64,000 bases of DNA from Desulfobaccales bacterium (GTDB lineage Bacteria; Desulfobacterota; Desulfobaccia; Desulfobaccales; 0-14-0-80-60-11): contig JBAUPV010000030.1 in assembly GCA_049580385.1 (NCBI GenBank), positions 926,190 through 990,189 on the forward strand, given 5' to 3'. A program made the translations under genes and the position numbers. The stretch's first letter is position 1, and each line of letters begins with the position of its first letter. The notes under the pieces are model-generated. The model did not search any database. It saw only the letters and a list, made by a program, of their open reading frames with translations, and was not told the origin of the DNA. Below, one piece after another: positions 1-22,346 of this stretch.

Positions 1-1469
1 GTGGCCCGGAGATTATACTCCCGCTTCTGGAGGCGGGAAATCCAGTTGCCGACATTGAGCTCGCGCCAGCCAAGGTAGAAGGCGGAGAGCAGGCTAAAAT
101 AAAAGGCCAGACGTAGGCGCCGCCAACCACGCCGCAGGTATGCCCTGCACCTGGCCCATCTATTCTCCGGCAAGGGTCGAAAAGGCGTTCGTGTGGTCAA
201 TTTTATAGGATGATCTTTCAATTTGCGGTCCAGGACCCGATCAGACGGCAATAGCAGCCAGATGCCGGTCTCCGGGTCCCGGGTCCTCAGGGCCAGAAAA
301 TAAGGGAAGGTGAAGACAAAGAGTCCCAAAAAAATCAATTCCAGGGGCCTACTCGGGGTCATGCCATAGTCGCAGGTCCATTCGAAGAAGACCAGCTGGA
401 AATAATTTCCCAGCCAGCTGATTCTCTTTTCTTTCCAATTATTGACCCGGCGGTTGTGGTTCAGGGCATAATTCACCTGACGTTCGTCATCCAACATTCC
501 CGCCTTTTTGAAAATTTCCCGCAATTCCATCAGGCCATATGAAAGGTTTCCAACAAATTTTAAGGAATCAAGCCCCTGTACGTAAAGAAGCCCGTCAGCC
601 CCTGGTAACTTGCCCGGTTTGGGCTCAAATGTGGCCCCTCTCAGGTCGGCCTTGATCAGGTCGGCCCCGCTCAGGTTGGCCCCGCTCAGCTTGGCCTTGC
701 TCAGTTTGGCCTCGCTCAGTTTGGCCCCGCTCAGATCGGCGTCGCTCAGGTCGGCCCCGATCAGGTTGGCGTGCCCCAGCTCGGCCCCGCTCAGGTCGGC
801 CCCGAGCAGGTCGGCCCCGTTCAGGTTGGCCCCTTCCAGGTGGGCCCCGCTCAGGTTGGCCCTGGCCAGCTCGGCCCCGCTCAGGTCGGCGAGCAGCCAA
901 GCCTTGCTCAGGTTGGCCCCGCCCAGGCTGGCCCAGCCCAGGTCGGCCAGGATCAGGTCGGCCCCGCTCAGGTCGGCCTTGATCAGGTCGGCCCCCCTCA
1001 AGTTGGCCCCGCTCAGCTTGGCCTTGCTCAGGTTGGCCTCGCTCAGGTTGGCCTCGCTCAGGTCGGCCCCGCTCAGGTCGGACCCGTTCAGTTTGGCCCC
1101 GCTCAGGTTGGCATGGAACAGGATGACCCTGCTCAGGTTGGCCTCGAGCAGTTTGGCCCCGCCCAGGTTGGCCCCGCTCAGGTTGGCCCCGCTCAAGTCG
1201 GCCATGGTCAGGTTGGCGCTGTCCAGGTTGGCCCCGCTCAGGTTGGCCTTGCTCAGGTCGGCCTTCTTCCCTTCCTTGCCATGACTTTCCAGCCACAGTT
1301 TGTGGTCCTTCAGAGTCTGGTCCAGGTCGGCTCTGGTAATCACCCGGCCATCGGCCCATCTACCGGTCCAGGGTTTTTCCGGCGGCGGCTTCTCTTGGCC
1401 GTAGGCCGGGGCCAGGCCCAGAAGCCACAGCCCCAGGAAAACCCAGGCAAGGCGACTCATACAGGACAT
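1..1469 (-). CDS. pentapeptide-repeat protein with N-terminal signal peptide and C-terminal hydrophobic region (3' end runs off the window)
   Basis: Absent from the ORF track because there is no stop inside the window. Reverse-strand reading from ATG 1469 (GGAGGA 5 nt upstream) gives MSCMSRLAWVFLGLWLLGLAPAYGQEK. About 40 consecutive A(D/N)LxG-type pentapeptides follow (ADLSKANLSGANLDSANLTMADLSGANLSGANL...) over ~625-1265. Then come hydrophobic helices (LELIFLGLFVFTFPYFLAL, LRLAFYFSLLSAFYLGW), with the frame open down to position 1. Confidence 0.85.
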   Translation of the reverse strand, partial: MSCMSRLAWVFLGLWLLGLAPAYGQEKPPPEKPWTGRWADGRVITRADLDQTLKDHKLWLESHGKEGKKADLSKANLSGANLDSANLTMADLSGANLSGANLGGAKLLEANLSRVILFHANLSGAKLNGSDLSGADLSEANLSEANLSKAKLSGANLRGADLIKADLSGADLILADLGWASLGGANLSKAWLLADLSGAELARANLSGAHLEGANLNGADLLGADLSGAELGHANLIGADLSDADLSGAKLSEAKLSKAKLSGANLSGADLIKADLRGATFEPKPGKLPGADGLLYVQGLDSLKFVGNLSYGLMELREIFKKAGMLDDERQVNYALNHNRRVNNWKEKRISWLGNYFQLVFFEWTCDYGMTPSRPLELIFLGLFVFTFPYFLALRTRDPETGIWLLLPSDRVLDRKLKDHPIKLTTRTPFRPLPENRWARCRAYLRRGWRRLRLAFYFSLLSAFYLGWRELNVGNWISRLQKREYNLRA

Positions 1470-1790
1470 GGCCGTTCCTCCTTATTCCTGTCTTGACGCC
1501 ATTATAGGCTCATTTTCTGGTTGGGGGAAAAAATGATTTTTTATATGGTCTATTTTGGGAACGCTGCCGACGCGCATGGTTGCCCAATTTGAGGGTTTTT
1601 AGGGGAGGTCAGTGTGGGCCAAAGTGTGGGCGAAATGCGAAATGTAAGAAGAAACCTAAAACGAAAGGCGCAACCTTGGGTTTCACATTTGGCCAGTTTG
1701 AGATGCTGCTTCATTTTCAACCACGACAATTCTCCTTCACCCTTACATAATTCTAGTTAATACCAAGGTGTAAGGACCCGCGGCGTTTAC

Positions 1791-3053
1791 TTATTCCACC
1801 GGCAAAGTGAGTACCGGCGTTTGCGATGGGGTAGTCTCGGACATGGCTAAGATTCCTTGTGTGCAGGAGAAAACGACTTTAGACTTATAATCGTTGTCAT
1901 CGATATAGAACCAATGGCCCCCGTATTTTATACTTACGAATGCCCCACGTGGGGGTTCGTTACTACAATTAATTTTTAAATCAATCAACTTTTCTTTCTC
2001 TCCGGCTGGTTTTGCCTTAGTATTTATGTCCTCCTGCGGCACCTGGATTAAATCAGAGAGCACGAGGAGTACTCCCAAAACTGAGCGGGATTGCAGGAAA
2101 ATTTTGTCGCACTTGGGGTCTGGTTGCAGGGGGTATTGGTTGCCATCGATGACTTTATAAACTTCATATCCCCCCAAGGCTTTTTGGAGGCCCTGGGACG
2201 AGGCCCTGGGCCACAGTAGTTCCTTTAAGCGTTTTACGTTGTTTAAATCTGTTTCATTTTTGCCGTTCGTATCTATCACTAAGTAACCAGCAACATCCTT
2301 CTCCTCTTTGATCTTGTCCGTCCCTACCTCAGTCGGCCTCCCCTCGCTTTCCGTCCCCTCCTGCACGGGCGGGGTCATTCCCGGCTCATTCTTCCCCTTC
2401 CCCTGTCTTGCATGCTTCAGGGTAACGGTATATTCTTGCGGCACCTTCGTTACCTTCGCTTCCACCGGTTCCTCGACGCTGATCCGGATGACGCCTTCCC
2501 GCGTGAGCTCATAAAATAGCTGAGCAAACTCAAAAAACCTTTCCTCCGGGTTTCGAAGTTCATTGACGTATTTGACGCAGGCGGGAAAGATGTACTTCGC
2601 AGGCCAGTTGGTCTGGAGACTTTTTAAAATTTTGGGAATAGGTAGAGGCTCGAGCAAGTTTTTTTCTAACGTATCTCCCCTCATGGGGGCATAGGTGATC
2701 GAGGGCTTGTTCGAGTAAGTAGCATAGCCGCCGACTGTGAGCACATTGCGAAATCCGTCCGTCCAAGCAGTTGCCGGGTTCGTCGCATGGAGGGGGTGCC
2801 AGGCTATGGGATAATTGGCGTTTATGTTATTATCCAGCTCATAACTGGTAGTTACGGAGGTCATTTCCAGGGTGGTCAAGGTCTCACCATAGCGTTGCAT
2901 AACCAGATTAGTGAGGAGCTGTTCCTTCCAGGATTTGGAGACGGCCTCCATATAATTTTCCCGGTCCGGGGGGATTTTTCCGGGGGGCATCAGATGAGAG
3001 CAACCGGCGCTGGCAAGGACGATCAGCAGGAGGACGAGTGTCGTTCTCTGCAT
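1791..3053 (-). CDS. hypothetical lipoprotein (two domains joined by a K/E/G/T-rich linker)
   Basis: ORF 1791..3128. The likely start is the internal ATG at 3053, giving MQRTTLVLLLIVLASAGCS with a lipobox (LASAGC). I recognise no family. AT-richer than its surroundings. Confidence 0.7.
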   Translation of the reverse strand: MQRTTLVLLLIVLASAGCSHLMPPGKIPPDRENYMEAVSKSWKEQLLTNLVMQRYGETLTTLEMTSVTTSYELDNNINANYPIAWHPLHATNPATAWTDGFRNVLTVGGYATYSNKPSITYAPMRGDTLEKNLLEPLPIPKILKSLQTNWPAKYIFPACVKYVNELRNPEERFFEFAQLFYELTREGVIRISVEEPVEAKVTKVPQEYTVTLKHARQGKGKNEPGMTPPVQEGTESEGRPTEVGTDKIKEEKDVAGYLVIDTNGKNETDLNNVKRLKELLWPRASSQGLQKALGGYEVYKVIDGNQYPLQPDPKCDKIFLQSRSVLGVLLVLSDLIQVPQEDINTKAKPAGEKEKLIDLKINCSNEPPRGAFVSIKYGGHWFYIDDNDYKSKVVFSCTQGILAMSETTPSQTPVLTLPVE

Positions 3054-3477
3054 ATTGAATGTTTCCTTTCGATTGGGAAAAAAGTGCTGGTCTGCTAAGG
3101 GTCTAAAAGATAAGCGCAAAAATCCCATAGATAATCTAAATTGTCAAGGAGTATTTCCGGCGGGGGCGGGGCCGTTGCCACCTGTTTTTTCTCCAACATG
3201 ATCCTGCTCCCAGATAAGCCAGCCAAAAGTAACTTGCCGCCATGAGCAGTTATTGCTTGGGCCGGCAAAATTTCAGATACGGCCTGGATAAGGCAGTTTT
3301 AGGTTCTCAATGCCAAAGGCATTTGCGCCAATAATTGAGCTTCATCGAAATATTGTTATTTATCAATTCCCCATTTCACCTTTGCTAGAGGGCGTACCTC
3401 TTCCTTGGAAGACAGGCGCTTCATCGATTTGCGGACTATGACCCCCCGGGCCAGCACCGCATGGTAATGGCGCCCAG

Positions 3478-5286
3478 CTATCTACCTCCCGGTCCTGAAT
3501 TATTTATGCTTTCCTTAGGAACATTTTGCTGTTTTGGCTGGATCCGAAAGATTTGAAAACCTGCTCCGGCCAAAAAGACAGGGAGGTTGCGACTCGTATT
3601 AAGGTTATAGTTCTTAGCCGCGTCGGTTAATTTATCCCACTCTACCAGATTGGGGTTTTTCTTTCCCTCATTGTCTCTTGGCCCGTAAGTCCAGCCCTCA
3701 TTTCTACGTTCATTTGACCAGCGCTCATGTTCCATTCTAGCCAATATTTCAATTTCTTCGGGAGTGAACTCGAACAATTCTGCATCCCAGTTGGTTAAAG
3801 GCATTATGTCACAATGAACCGCTATTAGTTTTTTGCCGATATGGTCGGCCTCGCGCCGATTCGATTCTTTGATCTCTTTAGAAAGTTTTTCCCAAGGGCT
3901 TAAAGAGGGATTGGTTTCCGGACTCTCGCCGATATTTGGTTGTTTGAGCACGTAGTCCTGATGCAAAGCCCGAGCCAGCATTTCATTCGTGCTAGTCGAT
4001 AGCAAATCGCTCCATTTGAGGTCAAGCAGCCCAAAGGAGTGGAGATTCGCAAAGCTCCCTCCGGCTTTATCCTCCTCTTGTAATAGCGTTGCCAGCCCTG
4101 CCTTACTGTCCAATTGCACGACAATGGGCACGCTCTCACGTCTTAAGTGTTGAAACAGGGACAGAGCCGCGGCTAGACTGCGGGAATCTTCTTCCAGGCA
4201 GATATAGGCCGAGGTGATAATACAGCGGCCCTCTTCATTCCAAAGAAATTTTGCCTGATCGAACTGAGGTGATTCGGTATCTGAGATTACTGGGATAAGT
4301 TCCCAAGAGTCGTTTAATTGAGGGTATCTCGATAGGAAAAATTCTTTTTTCCGATCCGCATCTTTGTCGACTATGGTAATAGCCAATTTTTTTGTAGATT
4401 TTTCGGGCGAGATTCTCCAAAGCATAGAGGCATGAATTGTCAGACTGGCGCCCATGGGCCCCAGTCCCACAATAAGTAAATGGGATGGAGATTTGCCGGC
4501 GCCTTCACCAAATGGGGGAAATTCCTTAAATAATTTCCGGGCCCCGCTTTCAAATAGGTTAAAAAATGCCAGTCGGTAGGAAGAACCTGTTTGGCTCTTG
4601 ATCTCATATTCTTTGAGCAGGTCACGCAGGTGGGGATCGGTAATGTGCACCAAACCGGTCAATACACTTTTTTGTGCTTCTGAGACCAGGGCCCGGGCAT
4701 TAATGGCAATTTCGGCGTTATCCCCGTCATTATCACATATGGCTACAAGATATTGCGCTTTATGCACCCGCGCCCTTTGTAATAGTTCTCTGTCAGTGGG
4801 ATCGCCCTTTAAAACCAGGATGCCGAGTTCTCGAATTTGCTCCAGGCTGCTGGTATTCTTATCATTTGATATTAGAACTACCTTATAGTTATCTTCATGA
4901 AAAGACCTGGCGCATAATGAGGCTTTATGGCCCATTCCACAAACCACAATGTGGTCATTGGTTAATTGTAATTTTAACCACCGGATTTGTGGCTGGAATA
5001 ATGTTAGACATAACTTTGGTATGCCAACGATTACACCTAAGTTCCATATTAGGTCCCGAATTCCTATCCAAAACCTCTTGTCAGATTCCGGGGAATAATG
5101 AATATTTATTTTATATATTTTGAATGAAATAGGTATTTTGAGAAAAATGATTATTTCGCGAATAATTAAATATAAACTTATTGCCAATATCACCAACACT
5201 ATAAAATCTTGCCAGAAAGGGCGCAGATTTCTTCTCCAGATAGCCCGGATCTTATCTCTCCATCGATCTTTCCCTATTACTTCCAT
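3478..5286 (-). CDS. membrane protein with two TrkA-N-like NAD(P)-binding Rossmann modules and a C-terminal RyR domain
   Basis: 602-aa ORF. The N-terminus has hydrophobic helices (FIVLVILAISLYLII; LIWNLGVIVGIPKLCL). Rossmann signatures: IVVCGMGHKASLCARSF...GDPTD and LLIVGLGPMGASL. The C-terminus MEHERWSNERRNEGWTYGPRDNEGKKNPNLVEWDKLTDAAKNYN fits the RyR-domain consensus (W..GW.YG....k.hP.lv.w..L). Markedly AT-rich codon usage. Confidence 0.8.
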   Translation of the reverse strand: MEVIGKDRWRDKIRAIWRRNLRPFWQDFIVLVILAISLYLIIREIIIFLKIPISFKIYKINIHYSPESDKRFWIGIRDLIWNLGVIVGIPKLCLTLFQPQIRWLKLQLTNDHIVVCGMGHKASLCARSFHEDNYKVVLISNDKNTSSLEQIRELGILVLKGDPTDRELLQRARVHKAQYLVAICDNDGDNAEIAINARALVSEAQKSVLTGLVHITDPHLRDLLKEYEIKSQTGSSYRLAFFNLFESGARKLFKEFPPFGEGAGKSPSHLLIVGLGPMGASLTIHASMLWRISPEKSTKKLAITIVDKDADRKKEFFLSRYPQLNDSWELIPVISDTESPQFDQAKFLWNEEGRCIITSAYICLEEDSRSLAAALSLFQHLRRESVPIVVQLDSKAGLATLLQEEDKAGGSFANLHSFGLLDLKWSDLLSTSTNEMLARALHQDYVLKQPNIGESPETNPSLSPWEKLSKEIKESNRREADHIGKKLIAVHCDIMPLTNWDAELFEFTPEEIEILARMEHERWSNERRNEGWTYGPRDNEGKKNPNLVEWDKLTDAAKNYNLNTSRNLPVFLAGAGFQIFRIQPKQQNVPKESINNSGPGGR

Positions 5287-5485
5287 CAGTCTAGGTATCC
5301 TTTTATTTGCCCGGTCCCGGTTGGCGCCGGTGAGACCCTTTTGCCGAGGTCTCCATACCAGGCATGATCAGTATAGGCCGGGCCTGCCACCTCATAAGAA
5401 CCTTAAGGAGGCGCAAGGGAGCGGGCCTTCCTGATGCGCCCCGGCCCCCGGCCCCCAATGGACAGCCGCAGGCCCCGCGTGGTCT

Positions 5486-6994
5486 TTAGGGCTGCACCAC
5501 CCGAAAATTGGAAAAGGCCACAGTATTCTGCCCCTCCGGCCCCGAATACACTTCAAATCCGATCTGGAAGCTTTTGTCTTCCAGCGGTTGGTCGGGGAAG
5601 GGGAAGTTGGCAACCTCTTTCCCATTTATAAAAATCGTACCCTGGTGGTCTTCGGTGATCAACTCGATCTGGTTCTCGGCCCCTTCCCCCTTCTTGAGAT
5701 TGTCATCCTGTTGCCGGAGGATGGTCGACACGCGGCCATAATTATAAGAACGGACCGAAAACCTGCCGTCGGAGGAAGTCAGGAGGGCATAATAGTCGTT
5801 GTAGTCCTTGGCCCAAAAAGCCAGGCCGGCCCCTTGGGTGGGGTCGCCGGCCTTAACAAAGGTTACGCTGTAGCTGGCCTCCATGTCGTTGGGCAAGTTG
5901 GCGTGGCGGTACAGCTGCATCTCTCTCTTGCCCTTGTCGGGGGTGAAGGTGAGCTTCCCGTCCTTGACGCTTATATCGGTTCTGAGAGGCCCCCAGCTAG
6001 GGGGCCAAATGGTGAACGGGTCCTCGAAAATCACATTGGCGGGCAGGGTCTCTCTTTTTACACCCTCATTCGCCATTTGGAACGAACCCGTGGTTACTTC
6101 TTTTCCAGCGTGTTGCGCAGCTACAGGGTAAATTCCTTGCTTCCAATTTTTGACATTTATAGGCCCAAAAAGTTGAGAATTTCCCGACCCCCCCGTATTG
6201 GTGGGTTTCGCGGGGTAGGCGCCTAAGACGACTTTACCATTGGGTCCGGACACGGTGGCTGTTAGGGGTTCCTTAGCCTGGTAGGGGGTCGATGGAGGTG
6301 GCATATTAGTAAGCTCACACCACACATATTCGGTCCCCGCGGTCGGAAAGCGCTTGTCATAAGTCCGTTCATTCACAGGGGGAGGAGTTTTTCCCGCGGA
6401 GGAAAAGAAACACATTTGGGGTTTCGGGGGCACTATCACCTTAGTCCAGATTACTACCGCTACCAACGCTACCACTACCGCGGCAAGAGAGGCGATGAGC
6501 GCAAAAAATAAAATTCGGGAAGATCTCCAGGTGGTGGTGGTGGCGCCGGCGACGGTGGCGGGTCTTTCATGATGGCGGCGTTTCCAACCTTTTTTGGCTA
6601 AAAGAACAGTTAGGGTATCTGCCAGGCGGGTCAGATGGTCCTCGAGTGGCGGGGTCATGGCATCAAGCCAGTGCGGGGTGCTGATCAAGTACTCCAAAGT
6701 TTTGCTTGGGGCAATATCCTCGGTACGAAAATTGAGCACCGACAGGCCCAAAGAAACCGCCCGTTCCACTTCCCGTTTGATGTGGACCGATTCATTGGAG
6801 TGGGACGAGAAGATCAAGACCAGGGCCTTGGCCTCGTCAATGGCATCAATAATAGCTTCCTCATAGTCCATGCCCGGAAGGGCATCGCGATAATCGATCC
6901 AGCAGCGTATCCCATGGCTTTCCAGGGTGGCCAGCATGGCATTGGCGGTTGTTTGATCCTCATGGGAATAACTGATAAAGACATCGTGGGCCAT
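5486..6994 (-). CDS. TIR-domain single-pass membrane protein with C-terminal extracytoplasmic beta-sandwich-like domain
   Basis: 502-aa ORF. N-terminus MAHDVFISYSHEDQTTANAMLATLESHGIRCWIDYRD...ALVLIFSSHSNESVHIKREVERA is a typical TIR_2-type domain. A basic stretch (KKGWKRRHHER) precedes the TM helix ILFFALIASLAAVVVALVAVVIW. The C-terminal ~170 aa (AGLAFWAKDYNDYYALLTSSDGRFSVRSY...IFINGKEVANF) resemble a DUF1080/LamG-type jelly roll. Confidence 0.85.
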   Translation of the reverse strand: MAHDVFISYSHEDQTTANAMLATLESHGIRCWIDYRDALPGMDYEEAIIDAIDEAKALVLIFSSHSNESVHIKREVERAVSLGLSVLNFRTEDIAPSKTLEYLISTPHWLDAMTPPLEDHLTRLADTLTVLLAKKGWKRRHHERPATVAGATTTTWRSSRILFFALIASLAAVVVALVAVVIWTKVIVPPKPQMCFFSSAGKTPPPVNERTYDKRFPTAGTEYVWCELTNMPPPSTPYQAKEPLTATVSGPNGKVVLGAYPAKPTNTGGSGNSQLFGPINVKNWKQGIYPVAAQHAGKEVTTGSFQMANEGVKRETLPANVIFEDPFTIWPPSWGPLRTDISVKDGKLTFTPDKGKREMQLYRHANLPNDMEASYSVTFVKAGDPTQGAGLAFWAKDYNDYYALLTSSDGRFSVRSYNYGRVSTILRQQDDNLKKGEGAENQIELITEDHQGTIFINGKEVANFPFPDQPLEDKSFQIGFEVYSGPEGQNTVAFSNFRVVQP

Positions 6995-7147
6995 CGGTAC
7001 TTACTCCCGGAAGTTTTTAGAAGCTATTTCCTAGAGATGGTTCTGGAATTACCTTGTCCGGGCGCGCCCGAACCGGATAGATCAAACTTGCCCTTTGGGG
7101 GAGACCCAACTCGTAATTAGACCGACCGGTAAGGACGATACCCAACG

Positions 7148-7459
7148 TTATTGGTCAGGACCGCGCCTTTTTCCTTTCCTCCCGGCTCTGTTAGGGGAGG
7201 GCGGTTCGATGCGGTATCCCCAGCCGAGAATGGTCTGAAGGGTGGCCAGAGAGGTTCTCCGATCATATTCCTTCTCCGAATCCGGCAGGTCTTGATAAGG
7301 AACCAGGCATGGGTGTTCCTTTTTCCGGTCATCCCGTTCCGGTCCATAGCGCCACCCTTCCGCCAGGCGTTGTGCAGCCCAGGCTTTATGGGTGTTCTCA
7401 GCCAGTTTTTCCACGAGTTCCAGGAGAGCCGCAGGAATCTTTTCTTTGGCGTCGTTCAT
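7148..7459 (-). CDS. stand-alone RyR-domain protein
   Basis: 103-aa ORF. LAENTHKAWAAQRLAEGWRYGPERDDRKKEHPCLVPYQDLPDSEKEYDRRTSLATLQTILGWGYRI matches the RyR-domain consensus almost residue for residue. Basic C-terminal tail. Confidence 0.85.
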   Translation of the reverse strand: MNDAKEKIPAALLELVEKLAENTHKAWAAQRLAEGWRYGPERDDRKKEHPCLVPYQDLPDSEKEYDRRTSLATLQTILGWGYRIEPPSPNRAGRKGKRRGPDQ

Positions 7460-8076
7460 CGCTTTTTACCCGGAAATATTCTCCCCCTGACCAATCGGTT
7501 GGGATTGGAAGCAACAAAACAAAAAGAGAGCCGCCATTCTCGGAGATAATGCTTTTAGGTAATTATTACTTTGATAAGAGTCAAGATTTTGGTCATCGAG
7601 GTGCCGCTGTCTTCGGCGTCCGCGGGGGCCTTCGGTGTAAAATATCTGCGACGGGTGATTGGCGGCCGGGGGATAAGAGTCCCGGCCCAAAATTCTGAGA
7701 TTAATAATCTTTAAGAAAATTTGTGCTATCATGGCGTCGACGAGATGATTCGGATTCAAGAACAGAAATTTTGGTGGTTTTTCCGGGCAGGAGGTTCCAA
7801 AAACCTTTGTTGGATTGCGGTGGCTAAGGCTGCTGCATAATTTCGGTCCAAACCACTTTTGGATAGAAGCGGGAAATGCAGCCCCTAATGTCGCTTATGC
7901 CTAAATCAAAGGAGAATCGGTGCAACTGCTGTAGCCCGACCCATCGATCTTAAAGGGTTCACCTGGTATGGGAATGTCCAAGACATCATCACGAACTGGT
8001 CCCAACAATTCGTACAAATCGCCAACCGGCGGCCGGGGGAGATCGTCAGGCCTGCCAGCACTTTTAGCTTAAAACC

Positions 8077-9921
8077 ATGGTAAATGCCAACAAACAGGAT
8101 TTTGAGGACGCCCGGCGAGGTTTCATCGCCCCGCTGCTGGACGATGGAGTGATCCGCAATCAGGAAGGCAAGCCGGTCTGGGATATGAGCGGCTTCTCGT
8201 TTATCAAGGAAGGCGCCGCCGCCCCTGAGACCGTCAACCCCAGCCTTTGGCGCCAGTCGCAGCTCCTGACCAACGCCGGGTTGTTTAAGGTGATTGACCG
8301 GGTCTATCAGGTGCGGGGCGCTGACCTCTCCAATATCACCTTCATCGAAGCCGACACAGGTATAATTGTGGTGGATCCCTTGATTTCCATGGAATGTGCA
8401 AAGGCCGCCATCGATCTCTACTATCAGCATCGGCCCAAGAAGCCAGTGATGGCGGTGATCTATACCCACAGCCACGTGGACCACTACGGCGGTGTCAAGG
8501 GCGTGGTCTCCGAGGATGACGTCGAGGCCGGCAAGATCAAGGTCATCGCGCCCGAAGGCTTCCTCAAGGCTGCCCTGGATGAAAACGTAATGGCCGGGAC
8601 GGCTATGGCCCGCCGGGCAGGATACATGTATGGAGTCTTCCTACCACCGGGGCCCCAGGGGAAGGTGACCGTGGGCCTGGGCCTTACGATGTCCACCGGC
8701 ACTGTTACCCTGATCCCGCCCACGGAGGTGGTCACCAACTCCGGCCAGGAAATCATCCTCGATGGCCTCAAATTCGTCTTCCAACTGGCCCCGGACACCG
8801 AAGCCCCGGCTGAGATGCATTTCTATCTGCCGCAGCTCAAGCTGCTCTGCCCGGCGGAAAACTGCTGCCACAACCTGCACAATCTCTATACCCTGCGGGG
8901 AGCTAAGACCCGCGACGCCCTGGCCTGGTCCAAGGCCCTCAACGAGACCCTGGAGCGCTGGGGCGACCAAATTGAGGTCATGCTGAACGTCCATCACTGG
9001 CCCGTCTGGGGCCGGGAGCGCCTCGTCGACCGCCTCAAAAAACAGCGGGACATGTACCGCTACCTCCACGATCAGACCCTGCGATTGGCCAACCAGGGCT
9101 TCACAATGGTGGAGATCGCCGAAATGGTCCACCTGCCCGAGAGCCTGGCCAAGGAGGGGTACGCCCGGGGCTATTACGGGACGGTAAACCATAACGTCAA
9201 GGGAGTGTACATCAAGTACCTGGGCTGGTTCGACGGCAACCCCGCCAACCTGCACCCCCTGCCACCGGTGGAGGCCAGCAAGCGGTATGTGGAGTTCATG
9301 GGTGGCGCGGAAGCGGTTCTGGCCAAGGCCCGCAAGTATTTTGATAAAGGGGAGTATCGCTGGGTGGCCCAGGTAGTGAACCACGTGGTCTTTGCCGACC
9401 CCACGAATGTCAAGGCCCGGGAGTTCCAGGCCAAGGCCCTGGAGCAATTGGGGTACCAGGCCGAATCGGGCCCCTGGCGCAACTTTTATCTCACTGGGGC
9501 TCAGGAACTGCGCCACGGTATAGCCAGGGAGGATGCGGGCACCACGGCCAGCCCCGATACCATCCGGGCCATGCCCCTGGGACTGTTTTTCGACTACCTG
9601 GGCGTCCGGCTCAACGGCCCCAAGGCGGAGGGCAAGACCATCACCATCAACTGGAACTTCACCGACACCAAGGAGCAGTATGTCCTGGCCCTGGAAAATG
9701 GCGCCTTGAATAACACAGCCAACAAACAGGCGAAAGAGGCGGACGCTTCCGTGACCCTGACCCGGGCGGCGTTTGGCGAAGCCATCATGGGTGGCCAACC
9801 AAAGCTCCAAGCCAAAATTGCTGCGGGGGACATCAAGATCGAAGGGAAAATGGAGAAGCTGGGGGAGTTGCTGTCCCTCATGGATAACTTCGATCCCTGG
9901 TTTAATATCGTCACGCCATAA
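8077..9921 (+). CDS. alkyl/aryl-sulfatase of the MBL-fold SdsA1/BDS1 family (MBL + dimerisation + SCP2-like C-terminus)
   Basis: 614-aa ORF. Family hallmarks: DFEDARRGFIA, VNPSLWRQSQL, VYQVRG and the metal motif THSHVDHYGG. An in-frame TAG lies 12 nt upstream of the ATG, so no signal peptide is encoded. Confidence 0.85.
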   Translation: MVNANKQDFEDARRGFIAPLLDDGVIRNQEGKPVWDMSGFSFIKEGAAAPETVNPSLWRQSQLLTNAGLFKVIDRVYQVRGADLSNITFIEADTGIIVVDPLISMECAKAAIDLYYQHRPKKPVMAVIYTHSHVDHYGGVKGVVSEDDVEAGKIKVIAPEGFLKAALDENVMAGTAMARRAGYMYGVFLPPGPQGKVTVGLGLTMSTGTVTLIPPTEVVTNSGQEIILDGLKFVFQLAPDTEAPAEMHFYLPQLKLLCPAENCCHNLHNLYTLRGAKTRDALAWSKALNETLERWGDQIEVMLNVHHWPVWGRERLVDRLKKQRDMYRYLHDQTLRLANQGFTMVEIAEMVHLPESLAKEGYARGYYGTVNHNVKGVYIKYLGWFDGNPANLHPLPPVEASKRYVEFMGGAEAVLAKARKYFDKGEYRWVAQVVNHVVFADPTNVKAREFQAKALEQLGYQAESGPWRNFYLTGAQELRHGIAREDAGTTASPDTIRAMPLGLFFDYLGVRLNGPKAEGKTITINWNFTDTKEQYVLALENGALNNTANKQAKEADASVTLTRAAFGEAIMGGQPKLQAKIAAGDIKIEGKMEKLGELLSLMDNFDPWFNIVTP

Positions 9922-10276
9922 CGACTTCGGAGCCATGAGATGACCGCGCCGCCGGAAATTTGGGCCACCAAAGTGACCGGATTGTTGAAGGGAGATCCGG
10001 GCTATGAGATGGCGGTAGCTTACAGCAAAGCGGTAAAAAGTCCTTGCATATCCCGCAGTTGTCCTTGGGTTATATCCTCAGCAAGACCAAACCCCGGCTC
10101 GGGGTGGCCGCTCATTTTACGGCCAACCCGGAAAACCTCAAACCCGCGCTTGACGATACTGGCAAGGAGTCCATGGATTTCCTTGATAAAATCTTATGTT
10201 CCACTAGGCCAGTTGACTTTCGAACCCGGTGGGTTAGTGCCAGTCAATAATGATTACCTGAAAGGAGTCTTTCATT

Positions 10277-12672
10277 ATGGATAGACCGCGCCCCGAATGG
10301 CAATTAATGGTTAAGGTTGCTTTAACCGGTCTGACCCTGGCCCTGGTATTGGCCTTCGGCAGCCAGGCAGCTAGGGCCCAGGAGTCCAAAGATAAGTGGC
10401 CCAAACGGTTCGAGGCCCCCAAAGGCGTCGTGGTCATGTACCAACCTCAGCTCGAGGATTTTAAGGGCGACGTCCTTACCGGCCGGGCCGCGGTCTCGGT
10501 GCAGAAAAAGGAATGGAAAGAGCCGGTGTTCGGCGCCGTCTGGCTCTCCGGCCGCGTCCTCACCGACCGGGATACCCGCATGGCCACCATTACCGAGGTC
10601 AAAGTTACCGACGCCAGGTTTCCCCAGGCCAAGCCGGAGCAGGTGGAGAAGCTTAAGACCTTTTTGAACGATCAGATGCAGAATTGGAACATTCCCATCG
10701 GTCTGGACCGGCTGCTGGCCGCCCTGGAAGTGGTGCAGAAGGAACAGGCCGGAGACCGGGGTTTAAACAACGAGCCGCCCCAGATCATCTTTGTCAGCCA
10801 CCCCGCGGTGCTGGTACCCCTGGACGGCGACCCCAAGCTGCTGCCGCTGCCCAAATCCTCCCTCATGAGGGTGGCGAACACGCCTTTTATCATGCTCTAT
10901 GATCCCAAGGCCAAGATCTATTACCTGAAGGGCGGGGAGACCTGGCTGGCCGCTGCCGATCTCAAGGGCCCCTTTAAGGGCGTGGACCGGCCGCCGGAGT
11001 CGATAACCGCCTGGGAGGCCGAGGCCGCTAAAGCCAGCCAGGGCCAGGAAGGCCCCCAAAAGGTGGAAGCCAAGGCCGGCAAGATGCCGGAAGTCATCGT
11101 CAGCACGGTGCCGGCAGAGCTGCTGGCGACCGACGGGGAGCCCCAATACACCCCCATTAAAGATACCAACCTTCTTTACGTGAGCAATACCGAGAGCAGT
11201 ATCTTCCTGGATACCGCCACCCAGGATTACTTCGCCATCATCTCGGGCCGCTGGTTCCAGACCAAGTCCCTGGCCAATGGACCCTGGGCCTATGTGGCCC
11301 CCGATAAACTTCCCGGGGATTTTGCCCGAATTCCGGAAAATTCGGCCAAGGGCTATGTCCTGGTGAGCGTGGGGGGCACCCCCCAGGCCAAGGAGGCGGT
11401 CCTGGACAACTCCATTCCCCAGACCGCCATCATTGACCGGAAAAAAGCCGCTATTCAGGTAGAGTATGCCGGGGATCCCAATTTTGAGAGGATTGGCGAC
11501 ACCAACCTGGAGTATGCCGTAAATACCGGCAGGACTGTGTTAAAAGCAGGAACCAAATATTTTGTCGTGGACCAGGGGGTTTGGTACGAGGCCGGCTCTC
11601 CTAAAGGTCCCTGGACGGTATCGGTGCAGCCGCCTCAGGAAGTGGACAAGATCCTCCCCAGCAACCCCTGCTACAGCGCCAAGTACGTAAAGGTCTATGA
11701 GTCCACGGATGATACGGTCACCGTAGGCTACACCCCCGGCTATACCGGCTCCTACGTGGACAGCGGCACGGTGGTTTACGGCACCGGCTACAATTACCCG
11801 GGTTATGCTACCCCGGATGCCTATATTCCACCCCCGGCTACTTATGGATACGCCGCGGCTTACGACCCTTACGCCGAACCTGGGGGTACCAAACCCCTTA
11901 TTATAATCCGGCCAGTTGGCTCGTCCCCGGGCTTATCGGCTTTGCCGCGGGCATGGCGGTGGGCGCGGTCACCAGTCCCTGGTGGGGCCATAGTTACGGT
12001 TATTGGGGCGGCGGCTGGTGGGGACATGGCGGCTATAACAACATCAATATCAATAATATCCAAAATAATGTGATCAACTGGCATCCCCACGGCGGGCCCA
12101 TCCATGGCCGGCCCATCATCCATCCGGTGACCGGTCCGGCGAACCGGCCGAACCTCTATAATCGGCCCGGGAACGAGAAGCGGCTGGCCTCCCGGCCCAC
12201 CACCCTGCCCGCGGGCCAGGCGGGACGCCCCGGCGGGCCGGCAAAGCCGGGGCCAGGGGGCCCATTGGCTGGGAAGCCCGCCACCTTGCCCGCCGGCAGG
12301 CCTGCCGCCAAACCGGCTCAGCCCAAAGTCCGGCCGGCGGGGGGCCGGGACAACGTTCTGGCCGGTAAAAACGGCAATGTCTACAAGCGGGACAATCAAG
12401 GCAACTGGCAGGAACGCCGGGGAAATCAGTGGGCCAAACCCGGAGCCGCGGCTCCCCGTCCCGGCCAGGCCCCGGCCCGCCCGGCAACCCGGCCCAGCCC
12501 CGATTTCGGCCAGTTGAACCGGGACTTCGCTGCCCGCCAGCGCGGCGATACGCGCGTCCAGAACTTCCAGCGGGCCAATCCGGCCCCCCGTCCCAGCGGC
12601 GGCGGCCGGCCTGCCGGGGGTGGCGGCATCAGTCGATCCTCGGGTGGAGGGCGCGGCGGCAGGCGGCGGTAG
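10277..12672 (+). pseudogene. secreted Tyr/Gly/Pro-rich protein with apparent single-base frameshift near 11879-11887 (or an assembly error)
   Basis: ORF 10277..12073 has a signal peptide (LTLALVLAFGSQAARAQES). After ...YGYAAAYDPYAEPGG its tail becomes implausible. The -1 frame continues naturally as WGYQTPYYNPASWLVPGLIGFAAGMAVGAVTSPWWGHSYGYWGGGWW... and is the ORF 11953..12672, which ends in a G/R/P-rich tail. The switch maps to a G5 run at 11882-11886. Confidence 0.55.
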
Positions 12673-12944
12673 TCCCCAGCCTCAGCACCATAGACGGCTG
12701 GTGGCTGGAAGGCCACATCGAGAACTTCACCGGTTGGGCCATCGGCGTGGGGGCACCTGCTGGTCTTCAGTATTCTGACGACGCCGATTGCCTCTACGGC
12801 AAACTCGAAAAGGTGATAATCCCCAGATATTATCGGGAGCGCTCGTTCTTCGTGCACGCCATGGACGGCGCTATTGCCCTGAACGGGTCCGTCTTTAAGA
12901 CCCAGCAAATGTTGCAGCAGTATGCAGTAAGGGCGTACCTCTGA
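12673..12944 (+). pseudogene. C-terminal remnant (~90 aa) of an alpha-glucan (glycogen/maltodextrin) phosphorylase
   Basis: The translation SLSTIDGWWLEGHIENFTGWAIG...DDADCLYGKLEKVIIPRYYRERSFFVHAMDGAIALNGSVFKTQQMLQQYAVRAYL* matches the conserved C-terminus of GlgP-family alpha-glucan phosphorylases (DGWW.EG...GWAIG...DA..LY..LE..i.P.fY). No upstream part of the gene is present. Confidence 0.7.
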
Positions 12945-13130
12945 GAACAGCTGGTTATACATGGAGCGGCACAGTCGTCACTCCCCTTTCACCTCCCATA
13001 AACAATGGCAGGTCTCCCTCGTTCTCCCAACCCTCTCCGACTGGAAATGGAAATAATTTTCAAAAAGAACTTGCCTACCCGGCGGCTTTGAGTCCACAAT
13101 ACTGAAATTTTTAGCGGGAGAAGGCGCCGC

Positions 13131-14471
13131 ATGCGGAGGTTCCTCTTTTGCCTGCTGTTGATTCTGGCGACGCCGGCCTGGGCCCAGCCTCCGGCGGGGG
13201 CCCCGAAAAGTCTGCTCACTCTGGAGGAGGCCGTCAACACTGCCTTGCAAGAAAACCGGCAGGTGCAGAATGCCACCCTGGAGGTCTCGAAGTCGGAGCA
13301 TATGCTGGCCGCGGTGCGTACCCACCGCTGGCCCATTTTCGAGGTGGTAGCGGCGGAAGACTGGCTGCTGACGCCCCTGGAGAATTTCAACGCCCTCGGC
13401 AGCCTTCCGGGCCTGCTGCCCATTCCCATTCCCGTTTCCACTCCCACCAGTCTGATCAAGAGCCAGCAGCCCACGGCCTATATTGCCGGTTTAATGGCCC
13501 AGCCCCTCAGCCAGCAGTACCGCATCGGCCTCAACATCTCCATGCACAACGTCATGCGGGAGATTGCCTGGGAGGAACTGCGGGCCAAACGCCAGGCCGT
13601 GGTCAATGATGTGAAGCGGGTCTATTTCAGCATTCTCCAGACCCAGAGTTCCCTGGAGAGCGTGGAGGAAAACATCCGCTTTCTGCGGGAACTGGACCGC
13701 CTCACGGGCCACCGTCTCAAGCAAGAGGCGGTGCTCAAGTCCCAAAGTCTGGAGGTGAAGGCCCGCCTGGCCCAGACGGCGCAGGATCAGATAGTGTTGC
13801 ATAACAATCTCGCCACCCAGAAAGAGCAGCTCAACGACCTGATGGGCCGCAATATCCTCACCGAGTTTCGCGTCAACCCGGTGCCCGAGGCCACGTCCCT
13901 GGAAAACGACCTGGAAGGGGCCCGGACCCGGGCCTTACAGCAGCGGCCGGAGATCCGGGAGGCGAGGCTGAGGACCAAACAGGCGGAATACGACCGCTGG
14001 ATCAAGCAGGCGGAATATATCCCCGATATCAGCTTTACCGTGTCATATGCCAAGACCGTCAACCTGTCGCCGCTGCCGGATAATCTCGGTTTTGCCGGGT
14101 TCATGCTGACCTGGGAGCCCTTCGACTGGGGTCGCAAGCGCCAGGAACTGGATGCCAAGACCGCCACCCTGGCCCAGACCAAAAATACCAGCCAGGAAAC
14201 CGAATCTAAGGTGCTCATCGACGTGGACAGCAAATTCCGCTCGCTCCAGGCCAGCCGGGGGCAGTTACTGGCTAGCCGGGCGGCCCAGGAAGCGGCCCTG
14301 GAAAAGCTCAAGGAAACCATGGACGACTTCAAGAACGACACCGTCCTCCTCAAGGACGTGCTCGAGGCCCAGACCCATCTGGCCCAGGCCGATAGCGAGT
14401 ATCAAAAGGCCCTGTCCGGCGTCTGGACGGATAAGGCCGCCTTCGAAAAGGCCACGGGGGAAGAGAAATGA
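13131..14471 (+). CDS. TolC-family outer-membrane efflux protein
   Basis: 446-aa ORF. Signal peptide MRRFLFCLLLILATPAWA. LTLEEAVNTALQENRQVQ and the two-repeat coiled-coil architecture are typical of the OEP family. ATGA overlap with the next gene. Confidence 0.85.
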   Translation: MRRFLFCLLLILATPAWAQPPAGAPKSLLTLEEAVNTALQENRQVQNATLEVSKSEHMLAAVRTHRWPIFEVVAAEDWLLTPLENFNALGSLPGLLPIPIPVSTPTSLIKSQQPTAYIAGLMAQPLSQQYRIGLNISMHNVMREIAWEELRAKRQAVVNDVKRVYFSILQTQSSLESVEENIRFLRELDRLTGHRLKQEAVLKSQSLEVKARLAQTAQDQIVLHNNLATQKEQLNDLMGRNILTEFRVNPVPEATSLENDLEGARTRALQQRPEIREARLRTKQAEYDRWIKQAEYIPDISFTVSYAKTVNLSPLPDNLGFAGFMLTWEPFDWGRKRQELDAKTATLAQTKNTSQETESKVLIDVDSKFRSLQASRGQLLASRAAQEAALEKLKETMDDFKNDTVLLKDVLEAQTHLAQADSEYQKALSGVWTDKAAFEKATGEEK

Positions 14472-15604
14472 GGCCCTTAAAATTTTTGGGGACCGCCCTG
14501 GTCTGGGTGCTCCTGGCCGCTGGCTGCGGTCAGGCGGAAAAACCGGCGCCGCCGCCTACCCCGGTGGGGGTCCGGGCCGCCGAGACCTACCAGGGAGGCG
14601 GCGAGGTCCGCTATTCCGCCAACATCCAGCCCTACGCCCAGGTGGACCTGGCCTTCAAGTCGGGGGGCTATCTCACCGGCATCTTCCGGGTCCGGGGGGT
14701 GGACGGCAAGCTGCGCAACGTCCAGGGCGGCGACTACGTGAAGCGGGGCGCGGTGCTGGCCCAGGTGCGCCTGAGCGACTACCAGGCCAAACTGAGCCAG
14801 GCCGCCGGCCTGTTGGCCTCGTCCCGGGCCGCCTTGGAGCACGCGGAACTGGACTTGGGGCGGGCCCAAGCCCTTTATGCCGCCAACAGCATGACGAAAT
14901 CCGACTACGACAAGGCCATGGCCAGGTATGGCGAAGCCGCGGGCAGCGTCGCCTCCAACTCAGCCCAGGTCCAGGAGGCCGGGATCGCCATGGAGGACAC
15001 CGCCCTGAAGGCCCCCACCGCCTCCCTGGTGCTCAAACGCAAGGTCGAGGTGGGCGACCTGGTCAACCAGGGTACGGTGGGCTTCACCCTGGCCAACACC
15101 GAAGAGGTCAAGGTGGTCTTTGGCATCTCCGACCTGATGCTCAAACACCTGAAGCTCGGCGATCGCCTGGACGTCACCACTGAGGCCCTGCGCGGCCGCG
15201 TCTTCCGCGGCCAGGTGACCGCCATTTCGCCCTCCGCCGACCCCAAAAGCCGGGTCTTCGACGTGGAGATCACCATCCCCAACCCCGAGCAGGAACTGAA
15301 GGTGGGCATGATCGCGGCGGTGGCGGTGGCCACCGGCCAGGCCCCCGCCAACCTCACCGTGGTGCCGCTGACCGCCATCATCCGCTCCAAGACCAACCCT
15401 GAGGGCTACGCCCTCTTTGTGGTGGAGGAGCAGAAGGGCCGCCAGGTGGCCCGCCTGCGAGACAACATCAAATTAGGCGAGGTTTACGGCAACATGATCG
15501 CCGTCACCCGGGGCGTCAAGATCGGCGATCCGGTGATCATCACCGGCGCCACCCTGGTCACCAACGGCCAACCGGTGCGCATCATCCCCCCGCCGGAGCG
15601 GTGA
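14468..15604 (+). CDS. efflux RND periplasmic adaptor (membrane fusion protein, HlyD family)
   Basis: 378-aa ORF. Lipoprotein-like N-terminus (LLAAGCGQ). It has the typical MFP barrel-sandwich/hairpin layout, e.g. GAVLAQVRLSDYQAKLSQAAG...LDLGRAQALY. Confidence 0.85.
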   Translation: MRPLKFLGTALVWVLLAAGCGQAEKPAPPPTPVGVRAAETYQGGGEVRYSANIQPYAQVDLAFKSGGYLTGIFRVRGVDGKLRNVQGGDYVKRGAVLAQVRLSDYQAKLSQAAGLLASSRAALEHAELDLGRAQALYAANSMTKSDYDKAMARYGEAAGSVASNSAQVQEAGIAMEDTALKAPTASLVLKRKVEVGDLVNQGTVGFTLANTEEVKVVFGISDLMLKHLKLGDRLDVTTEALRGRVFRGQVTAISPSADPKSRVFDVEITIPNPEQELKVGMIAAVAVATGQAPANLTVVPLTAIIRSKTNPEGYALFVVEEQKGRQVARLRDNIKLGEVYGNMIAVTRGVKIGDPVIITGATLVTNGQPVRIIPPPER

Positions 15605-15624
15605 GGGCTAAGCATAGGCGCTCT

Positions 15625-15766
15625 CGTTCCCAAGCTCCTGCTCGGGAACGCATATTGGACGCCAAGCTCCAGCTTGGCGAGAGGAGAGTCACCTTTATGG
15701 TTACTGGCATTTAAGCGAAGCAGAGCTTCGCACCCAAGCGGGTTCCCAAGCTGGAGCTTGGGAACC
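15625..15766. repeat. cluster of four GC-rich hairpin repeats between the MFP and RND genes
   Basis: Palindromes: cgttcccaagctcctgctcgggaacg (15625-15650), cgccaagctccagcttggcg (15660-15679), gcgaagcagagcttcgc (15715-15731) and ggttcccaagctggagcttgggaacc (15741-15766). The ttcccaagc/gcttgggaa arms recur at 60548-60570 and 60657-60679. Confidence 0.8.
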
Positions 15767-15840
15767 AGACTTAAATAAATTATCTTTTCAAACAGTCACT
15801 TAGTGTCCCACGCCCTAATAATGGCCTGTAGGACGCGCCC

Positions 15841-15905
15841 AATAGAAAATAGAAAACCGAAAACAAATATCTGGCTACTGGCTACTGACTACTGGCAACT
15901 GACCA
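15841..15905 (+). repeat. two adjacent degenerate heptanucleotide tandem tracts ending at the RND start codon
   Basis: First tract: aatagaa aatagaa aaccgaa aacaaat. Then 'at'. Second tract: ctggcta ctggcta ctgacta ctggcaa ctgacca. The final 'a' of the second tract is the A of ATG 15905. Confidence 0.8.
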
Positions 15906-19546: not shown

Positions 19547-19653
19547 GCGAGAAGGGTTGGGACAAGTCCCTAAAGATCGGCGTGACCAAAAACGGCTGGC
19601 GATTGGGCTAAATTTTAATAACCATTAACCATTAAGTCTATGAGGTGGCTAAC

Positions 19654-22266: not shown

Positions 22267-22281
22267 TAAAAAATACCTACG

Positions 22282-22319
22282 GGCGCCTGCGCCAGGGGCG
22301 CCCCCCTGGCGCAGGCGCC
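22282..22319 (+). terminator. perfect 17-bp GC hairpin just after the arylsulfatase stop (no U-tract)
   Basis: ggcgcctgcgccagggg cgcc cccctggcgcaggcgcc. It may terminate or stabilise the transcript. The missing T-run lowers confidence in intrinsic termination. Confidence 0.4.
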
Positions 22320-22346
22320 TACCACCTCAGGCGGTTCGGGGATGGC

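Follow-up and report, generated by a model that had tools for sequence, protein, structure and literature searches.

A predicted membrane-anchored TIR protein with a divergent extracytoplasmic jelly roll, encoded between RyR-domain genes in a Desulfobaccales bacterium

The minus-strand open reading frame at 5486..6994 of a 64,000-nucleotide stretch of a Desulfobaccales genome (contig JBAUPV010000030.1; the whole stretch is hereafter called the window) encodes, from an ATG start, a 502-residue protein, as an earlier note on this DNA had described. Our analysis suggests that this protein belongs to a Thoeris-like signalling module, in which an envelope-facing TIR sensor would generate a signal, a channel-like effector gated through an RyR domain would respond to it, and a small stand-alone RyR protein would buffer or erase it. 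We put the probability of this full chain, whose biochemistry we infer, at roughly 0.45. In the domain assignment and topology of the protein, taken jointly, our confidence is considerably higher. Its parts, from the N-terminus onwards, are the following.

6590..6994, minus strand: predicted cytoplasmic TIR domain, residues 1-135 (TIR_2, E = 1.1e-18; invariant E75)
6521..6589, minus strand: basic low-complexity tether, residues 136-158, sequence KKGWKRRHHERPATVAGATTTTWRSSR (predicted local distance difference test score, pLDDT, <50; length and sequence differ among relatives)
6434..6520, minus strand: single transmembrane helix, residues ~159-187 (hydropathy, AlphaFold2, relatives)
6050..6433, minus strand: predicted extracytoplasmic all-beta, immunoglobulin (Ig)-like sandwich, residues 188-315 (AlphaFold2, eight strands)
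5486..6049, minus strand: predicted extracytoplasmic concanavalin-like, DUF1080-like jelly roll, residues 316-502 plus the stop codon (Foldseek, sub-threshold PF06439)

The domain matches of the protein are genuine rather than chance similarities. In a Pfam scan, TIR_2 (PF13676) covers residues 5-112 with 68.4 bits against a cut-off of 28, and the TIR and ThsB_TIR models also exceed their cut-offs. There is no hydrophobic stretch at the N-terminus, where the translation opens straight on the TIR beta-A strand MAHDVFISYS, and the sole hydrophobic segment by the Kyte-Doolittle scale peaks at 3.07 over residues 164-182. Translation, Pfam and hydropathy thus bear out the earlier description of an N-terminal TIR domain that lacks a signal peptide and is followed by one transmembrane helix, and the strings cited there (KKGWKRRHHER...WRSSR, AGLAFWAKDYNDYYALLTSSDGRFSV and IFINGKEVANF) all occur in the translation. 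Within the TIR domain, the residues R74-E75-V76-E77-R78 are unchanged across an alignment of 30 relatives, and E75 lines up with the catalytic glutamate of the W-x-x-x-E motif in PdTIR (3h16) and TIR-STING (6wt6); MAHDVFISYS and HWLDA-TPPLE-H are further constant stretches. By its glutamate the domain appears catalytically competent, and enzymatic activity can be predicted from the sequence.

An AlphaFold2 model of the protein, built on an alignment of 18 sequences, is poor in the TIR part (pLDDT ~50) and confident in the rest, which comprises a helix (159-187), eight strands that form an all-beta domain (193-308, pLDDT ~75-85) and a jelly roll (321-500, pLDDT ~85-92). The earlier note had taken the C-terminal region for a DUF1080/LamG-type concanavalin-like fold and had proposed a Foldseek search with an AlphaFold model as a check. 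That search returned carbohydrate-binding jelly rolls, foremost among the PDB structures CBM66 (4b1m; TM-score 0.73, root-mean-square deviation 3.0 Å, E = 8e-9), with GH43 C-terminal domains, the DUF1080-like 3u1x, the botulinum neurotoxin (BoNT) Hc-N domain and galectin as further matches; in a library of viral structures the ectodomain matched lectin domains of phage tail fibres. The jelly roll also carries the N-terminal strand motif F(E/D)D.F....W of DUF1080-type modules. For PF06439 (DUF1080, 3-keto-disaccharide hydrolase) the match to residues 336-499 (E = 6e-4) reaches 20.4 bits in the full-length sequence and 23.6 bits when the domain is scanned by itself, in either case below the gathering threshold of 26.8, which relatives P0121 (75.7 bits) and P0131 (37.3 bits) exceed. 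We therefore regard the assignment of the C-terminal ~185 residues to a concanavalin-like, DUF1080-type jelly roll as supported, and would place it in a distinct subfamily of the DUF1080/CBM66/LamG modules, sharing their fold and strand motif but lying below the Pfam cut-off, mostly secreted and often in tandem. The beta-sandwich at 188-315 had no Pfam match; repeats homologous to it are found in secreted multi-repeat proteins that show DUF3859-like matches.

The orientation of the protein in the membrane follows from two considerations. The substrate of TIR domains, NAD+, is cytoplasmic, so that a TIR domain of ~160 residues without a signal peptide must stay inside. The jelly roll, on the other hand, belongs to a family that is overwhelmingly exported: a search with residues 185-502 against 1.84 billion representative proteins gave 498 homologues, of which the 181 at E<=1e-10 are mostly secreted and often have 2-7 tandem copies. 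A simple signal-peptide test found Sec-type signal peptides in 96 of 149 jelly-roll homologues, the jelly roll typically beginning at residue ~25-35, right behind a classical Sec signal peptide. In another 17 of the 149 it stands behind an internal transmembrane helix that follows a cytoplasmic-type N-terminal domain (TIR, a TIR-like 'MPKIVISYRR' domain, caspase or zinc ribbon); the homologues beyond these are mostly fragments, and a few seem to have no export signal. On these two grounds we accept an N-in/C-out, type II single-pass topology, which the sequences make very likely in vivo and which agrees with the earlier placement of the TIR domain in the cytoplasm and of the remaining C-terminal part (~315 residues) outside. 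The argument by which that placement had been reached, the positive-inside rule applied to the basic patch, fared less well. The basic tether is indeed present, but within 15 residues of the helix there are two Lys and Arg residues on each side, the bias appearing only in the wider flanks, and among 111 single-helix relatives the means are 2.54 on the N-terminal and 2.18 on the C-terminal side (p = 0.04).

In one of the homologues, P0187, a Peptidase_C14 caspase domain is followed by a transmembrane helix (471-489) and by the beta-sandwich and jelly roll seen here, an architecture which implies that the same outside module has been joined to a different cytoplasmic effector. Similar cases are P0164 and P0218, in which a zinc ribbon, a transmembrane helix and the jelly roll follow one another.

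The earlier note considered this architecture unusual. Our sequence search found >1,100 relatives of the TIR domain. The 120 closest share 55-76% identity in that domain, and 111 of them have exactly one transmembrane helix at ~150-215; a metagenome scan with the TIR domain gave at least 563 loci. The architecture is thus uncharacterised but not rare. What varies is the C-terminal domain, for which TPR is the commonest type among the relatives, besides PF06439, PDZ, WD40, PPC, YARHG, SH3 (SH3_3), BON and MlaD; loci read later added GH43_C2/DUF1349, LVIVD propellers and a PEGA-like region. Judged from these sequences, the family pattern is one of an unchanging enzyme module combined with outside modules that vary. 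Two to four TIR genes of this kind may stand side by side (L121 5406-11151, with four; L016 9320-11080; L037 1608-7726), and some of these loci also contain, again beside RyR genes, a second TIR subfamily fused to a transmembrane helix and WD40, of ~1,000 residues.

The ectodomain also varies among close relatives. When the locus is compared with that of a close Desulfobaccales relative, L001, identity of the DNA is 95-99% across the upstream RyR gene and the TIR domain, drops sharply to 50-70% from about 6600 to 5600 (tether, transmembrane helix, beta-sandwich and jelly roll), and is back at 87-99% in the downstream genes. Amino acid identities to L001, and pairwise ratios of non-synonymous to synonymous substitution rates (dN/dS) by the Nei-Gojobori method, were as follows.

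TIR domain: 97% identity, dN/dS 0.23
Tether and transmembrane helix: 45% identity, dN/dS 1.06
Beta-sandwich: 43% identity (the most divergent part), dN/dS 1.34
Jelly roll: 64% identity, dN/dS 1.14
Small RyR protein: 93% identity, dN/dS 0.23
Channel-like partner: 93% identity, dN/dS 0.41

In the divergent segment dS is itself raised, to 0.21-0.55 as compared with 0.06-0.14. A still closer relative, L155, has ~97.5% DNA identity throughout; here we counted 5 synonymous and 0 non-synonymous differences in the TIR domain, and 11 and 20, respectively, in residues 136-502 (dN/dS about 0.57 for the latter). These comparisons point to fast, sensor-like evolution of the ectodomain or to its replacement as a cassette, and would fit a sensor that faces a ligand. 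With regard to the idea of a diversity-generating retroelement, no reverse transcriptase was noticed near the locus, though no search was aimed at one.

One could also imagine that the periplasmic DUF1080-like domain is the working part of the protein, acting on carbohydrates of the envelope or the environment as a 3-keto-disaccharide hydrolase-like enzyme or a glycan-binding anchor, with the TIR domain as a mere oligomerisation or scaffold domain, which is what the TIR domains of animal Toll-like receptors are known to be. The weak similarity to PF06439 and the fold likeness to CBM66 and GH43_C would agree with this, but the same TIR domain, at 55-76% identity, is elsewhere joined to unrelated ectodomains (TPR, WD40, PDZ, LVIVD, PEGA-like), and it is the TIR domain that is constrained (dN/dS 0.23, invariant glutamate), a variable ectodomain being suited to a sensor rather than to a conserved enzyme. 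We consider such a role very unlikely.

The most informative feature of the locus was overlooked by the earlier note, and consists of the RyR-domain genes that flank the TIR gene.

7148..7459, minus strand: stand-alone RyR-domain protein, 103 residues; proposed buffer (sponge) or glycosidase 'eraser' (PF02026, synteny)
3478..5286, minus strand: channel-like partner, 602 residues; two transmembrane helices, degenerate pore, tandem RCK (TrkA_N) domains and a C-terminal RyR Repeat12-like domain (Pfam, AlphaFold2, Foldseek)

The small RyR gene lies 153 bp upstream of the TIR gene on the same strand and is syntenic in L001-L004 and L155. Its product is a single RyR domain (PF02026; E = 5.6e-29, 100.7 bits against a cut-off of 27.4) that matches 3NRT of B. 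thetaiotaomicron at E = 6e-27, and also RyR Repeat12. The partner gene follows 199 bp downstream of the TIR gene, likewise on the same strand, and its product matches TrkA_N (2e-16) and RyR (2e-17, 63.9 bits against 27.4) in Pfam. The AlphaFold2 model of the partner (38 sequences, pLDDT 84.5, predicted TM-score 0.76) consists of two long transmembrane helices, two Rossmann/RCK domains and a C-terminal two-repeat RyR domain. By Foldseek it resembles the GsuK K+ channel, structures with bound NAD and ADP among them (E = 5e-11, over as many as 536 aligned columns), the gating rings of TrkA and CASTOR, and human RyR3 Repeat12 with ADP, AMP-PCP or dantrolene (E = 4e-7). The homologue P0307 has a canonical TTIGYGD selectivity filter where most members of the partner family have the degenerate loop 'QLFxLESGxV'. 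The partner thus descends from a K+ channel, with the two transmembrane helices and tandem Rossmann-type RCK domains of GsuK, MthK and TrkA channels; it differs from these in its degenerate filter and in the extra RyR Repeat12-like domain at its C-terminus, and may have lost K+ selectivity, or conductance altogether. A smaller dip in identity to L001 falls at 5152-4949 of the window, in the membrane-embedded N-terminal region of the partner including the loop between its helices.

The association of TIR and RyR genes is found in several phyla. Among Desulfobaccales relatives the gene order of 103-residue RyR protein, TIR and TrkA_N-RyR is kept although the upstream flank differs, and in Dehalococcoidia (Chloroflexota) an orthologue with TIR, transmembrane helix and PF06439 abuts a 612-residue TrkA_N-RyR orthologue that is 36% identical over its full length; partner orthologues beside genes for TIR proteins with a transmembrane helix also occur in Anaerolineae. 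We then looked at the association from both sides. With the partner protein we retrieved 61 loci from species-representative genomes and scanned them with local hidden Markov models (HMMs). RyR genes were present in 46 of the 61 and TIR genes in 12 of these 46, with 8 of the 12 TIR genes within 151 bp of an RyR gene; the 12 come from Desulfobaccales, Desulfobacterales, Anaerolineae (3), Dehalococcoidia (2), Eubacteriales, Bacteroidales, Actinomycetota and an unclassified bacterium, and the ectodomains of the TIR proteins in these RyR-centred loci differ (ConA-like, LVIVD, WD40, or none). From the other side, 80 metagenome loci retrieved with the TIR domain, 552 kb in all, were examined. An RyR gene adjoins the TIR gene in 9 of the 80, within 140 bp in 7 of the 9, and in 5 of the 22 that have >=1.5 kb on both sides, while no RyR gene was found elsewhere in the 552 kb.

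When the neighbours of the 80 TIR genes were clustered, one dominant group of 23 loci emerged, made up by Pfam of (i) proteins with RyR, TPR-S, MAP3K_TRAF_bd and nucleotide cyclase domains and (ii) two-transmembrane proteins with SLATT_1/DUF4231. Next to the TIR gene of L091 is a protein with RelA_SpoT, TPR, LSDAT (SLOG) and RyR domains, and L016, from the RyR-centred set, has a large protein with two C-terminal RyR repeats; for neither is membership of the dominant group established. RyR proteins of the cyclase and RelA_SpoT types suggest that the TIR signal is relayed to further nucleotide messengers. For SLOG and SLATT, a role as readers and effectors of nucleotides made by TIR or SMODS proteins has been established or predicted, SLATT being the effector of type VII Thoeris that answers to cyclic ADP-ribose (cADPR). 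Large multidomain RyR proteins beside genes for membrane-anchored TIR proteins were seen at L152 1433-3838, L130 4477-6876 and L091 1034-3574, and a 1,306-residue protein of candidate division WOR-3 (L025 406-4323) has about ten matches to the RyR HMM, which suggests a long tandem array of RyR domains. In the literature searched we found no description of bacterial transmembrane TIR receptors or of TIR/RyR gene pairs, which is not proof of novelty.

A possible ligand for the RyR domains is indicated by recent work on phages, where PF02026 proteins named RyDEP bind 2'/3'cADPR with nM affinity or cleave it (Lopez Rivera et al. 2026 preprint, PMC13232231). In RyDEP, H75 and D117 form the catalytic dyad, W78 stacks on the adenine and H100 holds the phosphates, and these residues are stated to be conserved across PF02026 and animal RyR Repeat12 (PMC13232231). 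The small RyR protein has H24, W27, H49 and D66, at spacings (+3, +25, +42) identical to those of the RyDEP residues, and its W27 aligns with Trp880 of RyR3, which is stacked on adenine in crystal structures with ADP or AMP-PCP; W523 of the partner corresponds to the same tryptophan. A comparison of the tetrad positions covered 85 RyR domains of the loci retrieved; 84 of them have His24 and 74 have Trp27, and the full tetrad is found in 13 of 17 small stand-alone proteins and 4 of 4 N-terminal RyR domains as compared with 15 of 52 channel-type C-terminal repeats. This distribution agrees with divided roles, the small RyR protein being able to bind and perhaps cleave the ligand and the RyR domain of the channel only to bind it. 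A search of a phage collection with the small RyR protein gave 232 phage RyR proteins; the DyoEdafos RyDEP was absent from the 40 of these matches that were listed.

The residues and neighbours described so far bear on another explanation, namely that the protein is a stand-alone membrane NADase, an effector of abortive infection or of a stress response, which would deplete NAD+ when its ectodomain is triggered, with the RCK/RyR neighbours at most sensing, through their RCK domains, that NAD(H) falls or ADP-ribose rises. Depletion of NAD+ by bacterial TIR effectors is well established, many members of the family have no RyR, SLATT or SLOG neighbour, and TrkA_N/RCK domains bind NAD(H) and ADP, GsuK having been solved with both NAD and ADP. 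Yet diverse nucleotide-reader neighbours (RyR, SLOG, SLATT, TPR-S) recur across phyla, which is a signature of signal-generating TIR proteins, and a plain NADase leaves the conserved ligand residues of the RyR domains unexplained. We regard it as unlikely; the earlier view of the protein as a signalling component rather than a soluble NADase is supported.

A different doubt arises from the composition of the region. The block at 1470-7660, which holds the RyR, TIR, channel and lipoprotein-like genes, has a GC content of 0.496 (0.44 in the channel gene) as compared with 0.604 ± 0.013 in the rest of the window (6-kb windows), and this compositional island suggests horizontal acquisition. In L001 the genes ribF-TauE-rimP-nusA-infB directly abut the small RyR gene. 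In the window ribF-TauE-nusA-infB lie at 22.8-29.8 kb, about 15 kb off the RyR gene, and the interval (8077-22800) holds an alkyl sulfatase, a 598-residue secreted protein and a TolC-MFP-RND efflux set; the upstream flank of L155 consists of sulfatases. As the three flanks differ, the upstream side of the module must have been rearranged among close relatives. The RyR genes might accordingly be unrelated passengers of a shared mobile island, or counter-measures that mop up the TIR product in the manner of an antitoxin, with no signal transmitted, and phage RyR proteins do act as sponges. We think this quite unlikely. RyR domains have been fused independently to large output-type proteins (the channel-like RCK protein, TPR-S with cyclase, RelA_SpoT with SLOG), which a mere sponge would hardly account for, and buffering by the small RyR protein already forms part of the explanation we prefer.

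The signalling chain that we prefer would run as follows. The 502-residue protein sits in the inner membrane, its TIR domain on the cytoplasmic side and its beta-sandwich and jelly roll on the periplasmic side, a step we consider well supported, and would act as both sensor and signal generator, in the manner of ThsB. An envelope cue, which might be a ligand, a phage component or a surface glycan, would engage the variable ectodomain and cluster the receptors, and clustering would bring about the head-to-tail TIR assemblies that TIR enzymes need for activity. The TIR domain would then turn NAD+ into an ADP-ribose-derived signal, probably a cADPR isomer, to be read by the Repeat12-type domain of the GsuK-like partner, which together with the NAD(H)/ADP-binding RCK ring would alter ion flux or membrane integrity. 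The small RyR protein would set the threshold as a sponge, or hydrolyse and so terminate the signal. The outcome could be abortive infection or a physiological response, and the effectors of sister loci (cyclase, RelA/SpoT, SLATT) are compatible with either; a classical defence island is argued against by the housekeeping neighbourhood and the absence of PADLOC matches. More tentatively, and with clearly less than even odds, one could speculate that the locus exemplifies transmembrane-receptor TIR signalling at large, in which a diversifying ectodomain switches a TIR cyclase, RyR Repeat12 on a K-channel-derived RCK protein reads the cADPR-type product, and a small RyR sponge or glycosidase tunes it. 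In that case the animal cADPR-RyR axis and phage RyDEP would have a prokaryotic counterpart, from which both might even have evolved.

Several observations weigh against this chain. The link between the TIR family and RyR is not universal: most loci of the family (about 70-90%) have no RyR neighbour, among them those of P0003 (48% identical) and the TPR variant P0043, and the Dehalococcoidia pair is convergent and hence not an operon. The selectivity filter of the partner in the window is even more degenerate than that of its family and has lost the T-V/I-G-Y-G sequence of RCK-gated K+ channels of the GsuK/MthK type, which makes channel function uncertain. Its RyR domain keeps H520 and W523 but has N544 and N561, so that two of the four ligand positions are Asn. 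The mapping to RyDEP was made from residue spacing and the RyR3 alignment, not from the RyDEP sequence, and suggests rather than establishes equivalence of the residues; binding of cADPR isomers by RyR domains is known for phage proteins only, from one preprint, and would apply here by analogy. With respect to defence, no defence genes were recognised flanking the locus in this window and the few related loci read, and PADLOC gave no match for the partner proteins and weak ThsB matches (E = 1e-5) for the TIR protein. As for the topology and the ectodomain, the RyR-associated TIR protein of L047 seemingly has a jelly-roll-like region without a transmembrane helix, and the positive-inside rule was dropped as proof of topology in view of the tie here and the weak bias over the 111 relatives. 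Strict positive selection on the ectodomain was likewise rejected, since dN/dS exceeds 1 in the L001 pair with dS raised and is ~0.57 in the L155 pair; because dS is also raised, replacement of the allele by recombination is as likely as pure positive selection.

Among known systems, Thoeris is the closest, and we propose by analogy that the locus works like Thoeris but belongs to no recognised type. In a recent survey, type X Thoeris pairs TIR with an ion-channel effector responding to a signal that is unknown, and type VII pairs TIR with SLATT, responding to cADPR (Yirmiya et al. 2025, 10.64898/2025.12.03.692087); the survey left out TIR proteins outside defence islands as well as stand-alone TIR proteins, and mentions neither RyR nor TrkA (10.64898/2025.12.03.692087). 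Shared with Thoeris are a TIR gene beside a gene with a putative signal-binding domain, membrane or ion-channel effectors, and sister loci with SLATT. Here, however, the TIR protein is membrane-anchored with an extracytoplasmic sensor, the candidate reader is RyR/Repeat12 on a GsuK-like RCK protein, and the locus lies outside a defence island, with partners that have no PADLOC match and Thoeris models far below their cut-offs: NCBIfam gave no system-level match and generic TIR matches only, the Thoeris model ThcB4 scoring 24 bits against a cut-off of 220.

The small RyR protein shares with RyDEP the PF02026 domain, the small stand-alone size and the identically spaced His/Trp/His/Asp. It differs in being encoded on a bacterial chromosome beside a TIR gene, and is presumably part of a circuit, as buffer, eraser or reader, rather than a means of immune evasion. 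The animal SARM1/CD38-cADPR-RyR axis likewise combines a TIR enzyme with an RyR-repeat nucleotide-binding domain on a membrane channel-like protein, although its pore is the six-transmembrane one of RyR rather than derived from a two-transmembrane K+ channel, and in bacteria the link is one of gene adjacency alone; even in animals the action of cADPR through Repeat12 (R12) is unsettled (PMC13232231).

The comparison with Toll-like receptors made in the earlier note does not extend beyond its logic. The logic of an external sensor, one transmembrane helix and a cytosolic TIR domain is shared with Toll-like and IL-1 receptors, but the polarity is inverted: these are type I proteins with a signal peptide, a leucine-rich-repeat (LRR) or Ig ectodomain and a C-terminal TIR domain, whereas the protein described here is of type II, with an N-terminal TIR domain and an unrelated jelly-roll ectodomain. 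The bacterial TIR domain moreover keeps the catalytic glutamate, and probably acts as an enzyme instead of a scaffold. The likeness is one of convergence and not of homology of the whole architecture.

To our knowledge, bacterial TIR signalling as characterised so far (Thoeris, CBASS and Pycsar effectors, TIR-pAgo, Avs) always relies on soluble proteins that detect intracellular events. If our interpretation is correct, a large family of TIR proteins with one transmembrane helix and interchangeable ectodomains would extend it to events at or outside the envelope. The pairing with RyR would give the RyR domain an endogenous role in bacteria and suggests where phages obtained their RyDEP counter-defence genes, and a simple system of two or three genes could address the long-debated question of whether RyR Repeat12 domains truly act as channel-gating receptors of the cADPR type.

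Two further genes lie downstream of the partner, and their membership of the module is uncertain.

1791..3128, minus strand: lipoprotein-like hypothetical protein, 445 residues; possible accessory (N-terminus ...LLLIVLASAGCSH, like a lipoprotein signal)
1..1469, minus strand: secreted pentapeptide-repeat protein, >=489 residues, with C-terminal transmembrane segments (signal peptide MSCMSRLAWVFLGLWLLGLAPAYG, then A(D/N)LSG repeats)

The first is on the same strand as the module, syntenic in close Desulfobaccales relatives only, and had no Pfam, PADLOC or NCBIfam match; a second smaller dip in identity to L001 falls in its middle (window 2327-2112, 69-75% as compared with ~95% around it). A scan of 1500-8200 for promoters and terminators gave counts at the level of shuffled sequence and so carries no information on operon structure. 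In a dehalococcoidial locus (L006 4028-5770, minus strand) a divergent gene for a 580-residue SMC_N/AAA_23 ATPase lies just upstream of the gene for the membrane-anchored TIR protein. The pentapeptide-repeat gene, which runs off the start of the window, is the last of the block syntenic with L001, whose orthologue matches Pfam Pentapeptide at E = 8e-50; the open reading frames listed at 610-1496 ('LAPLRS...', 'ERGQPERG...') are spurious products of these repeats read in other frames.

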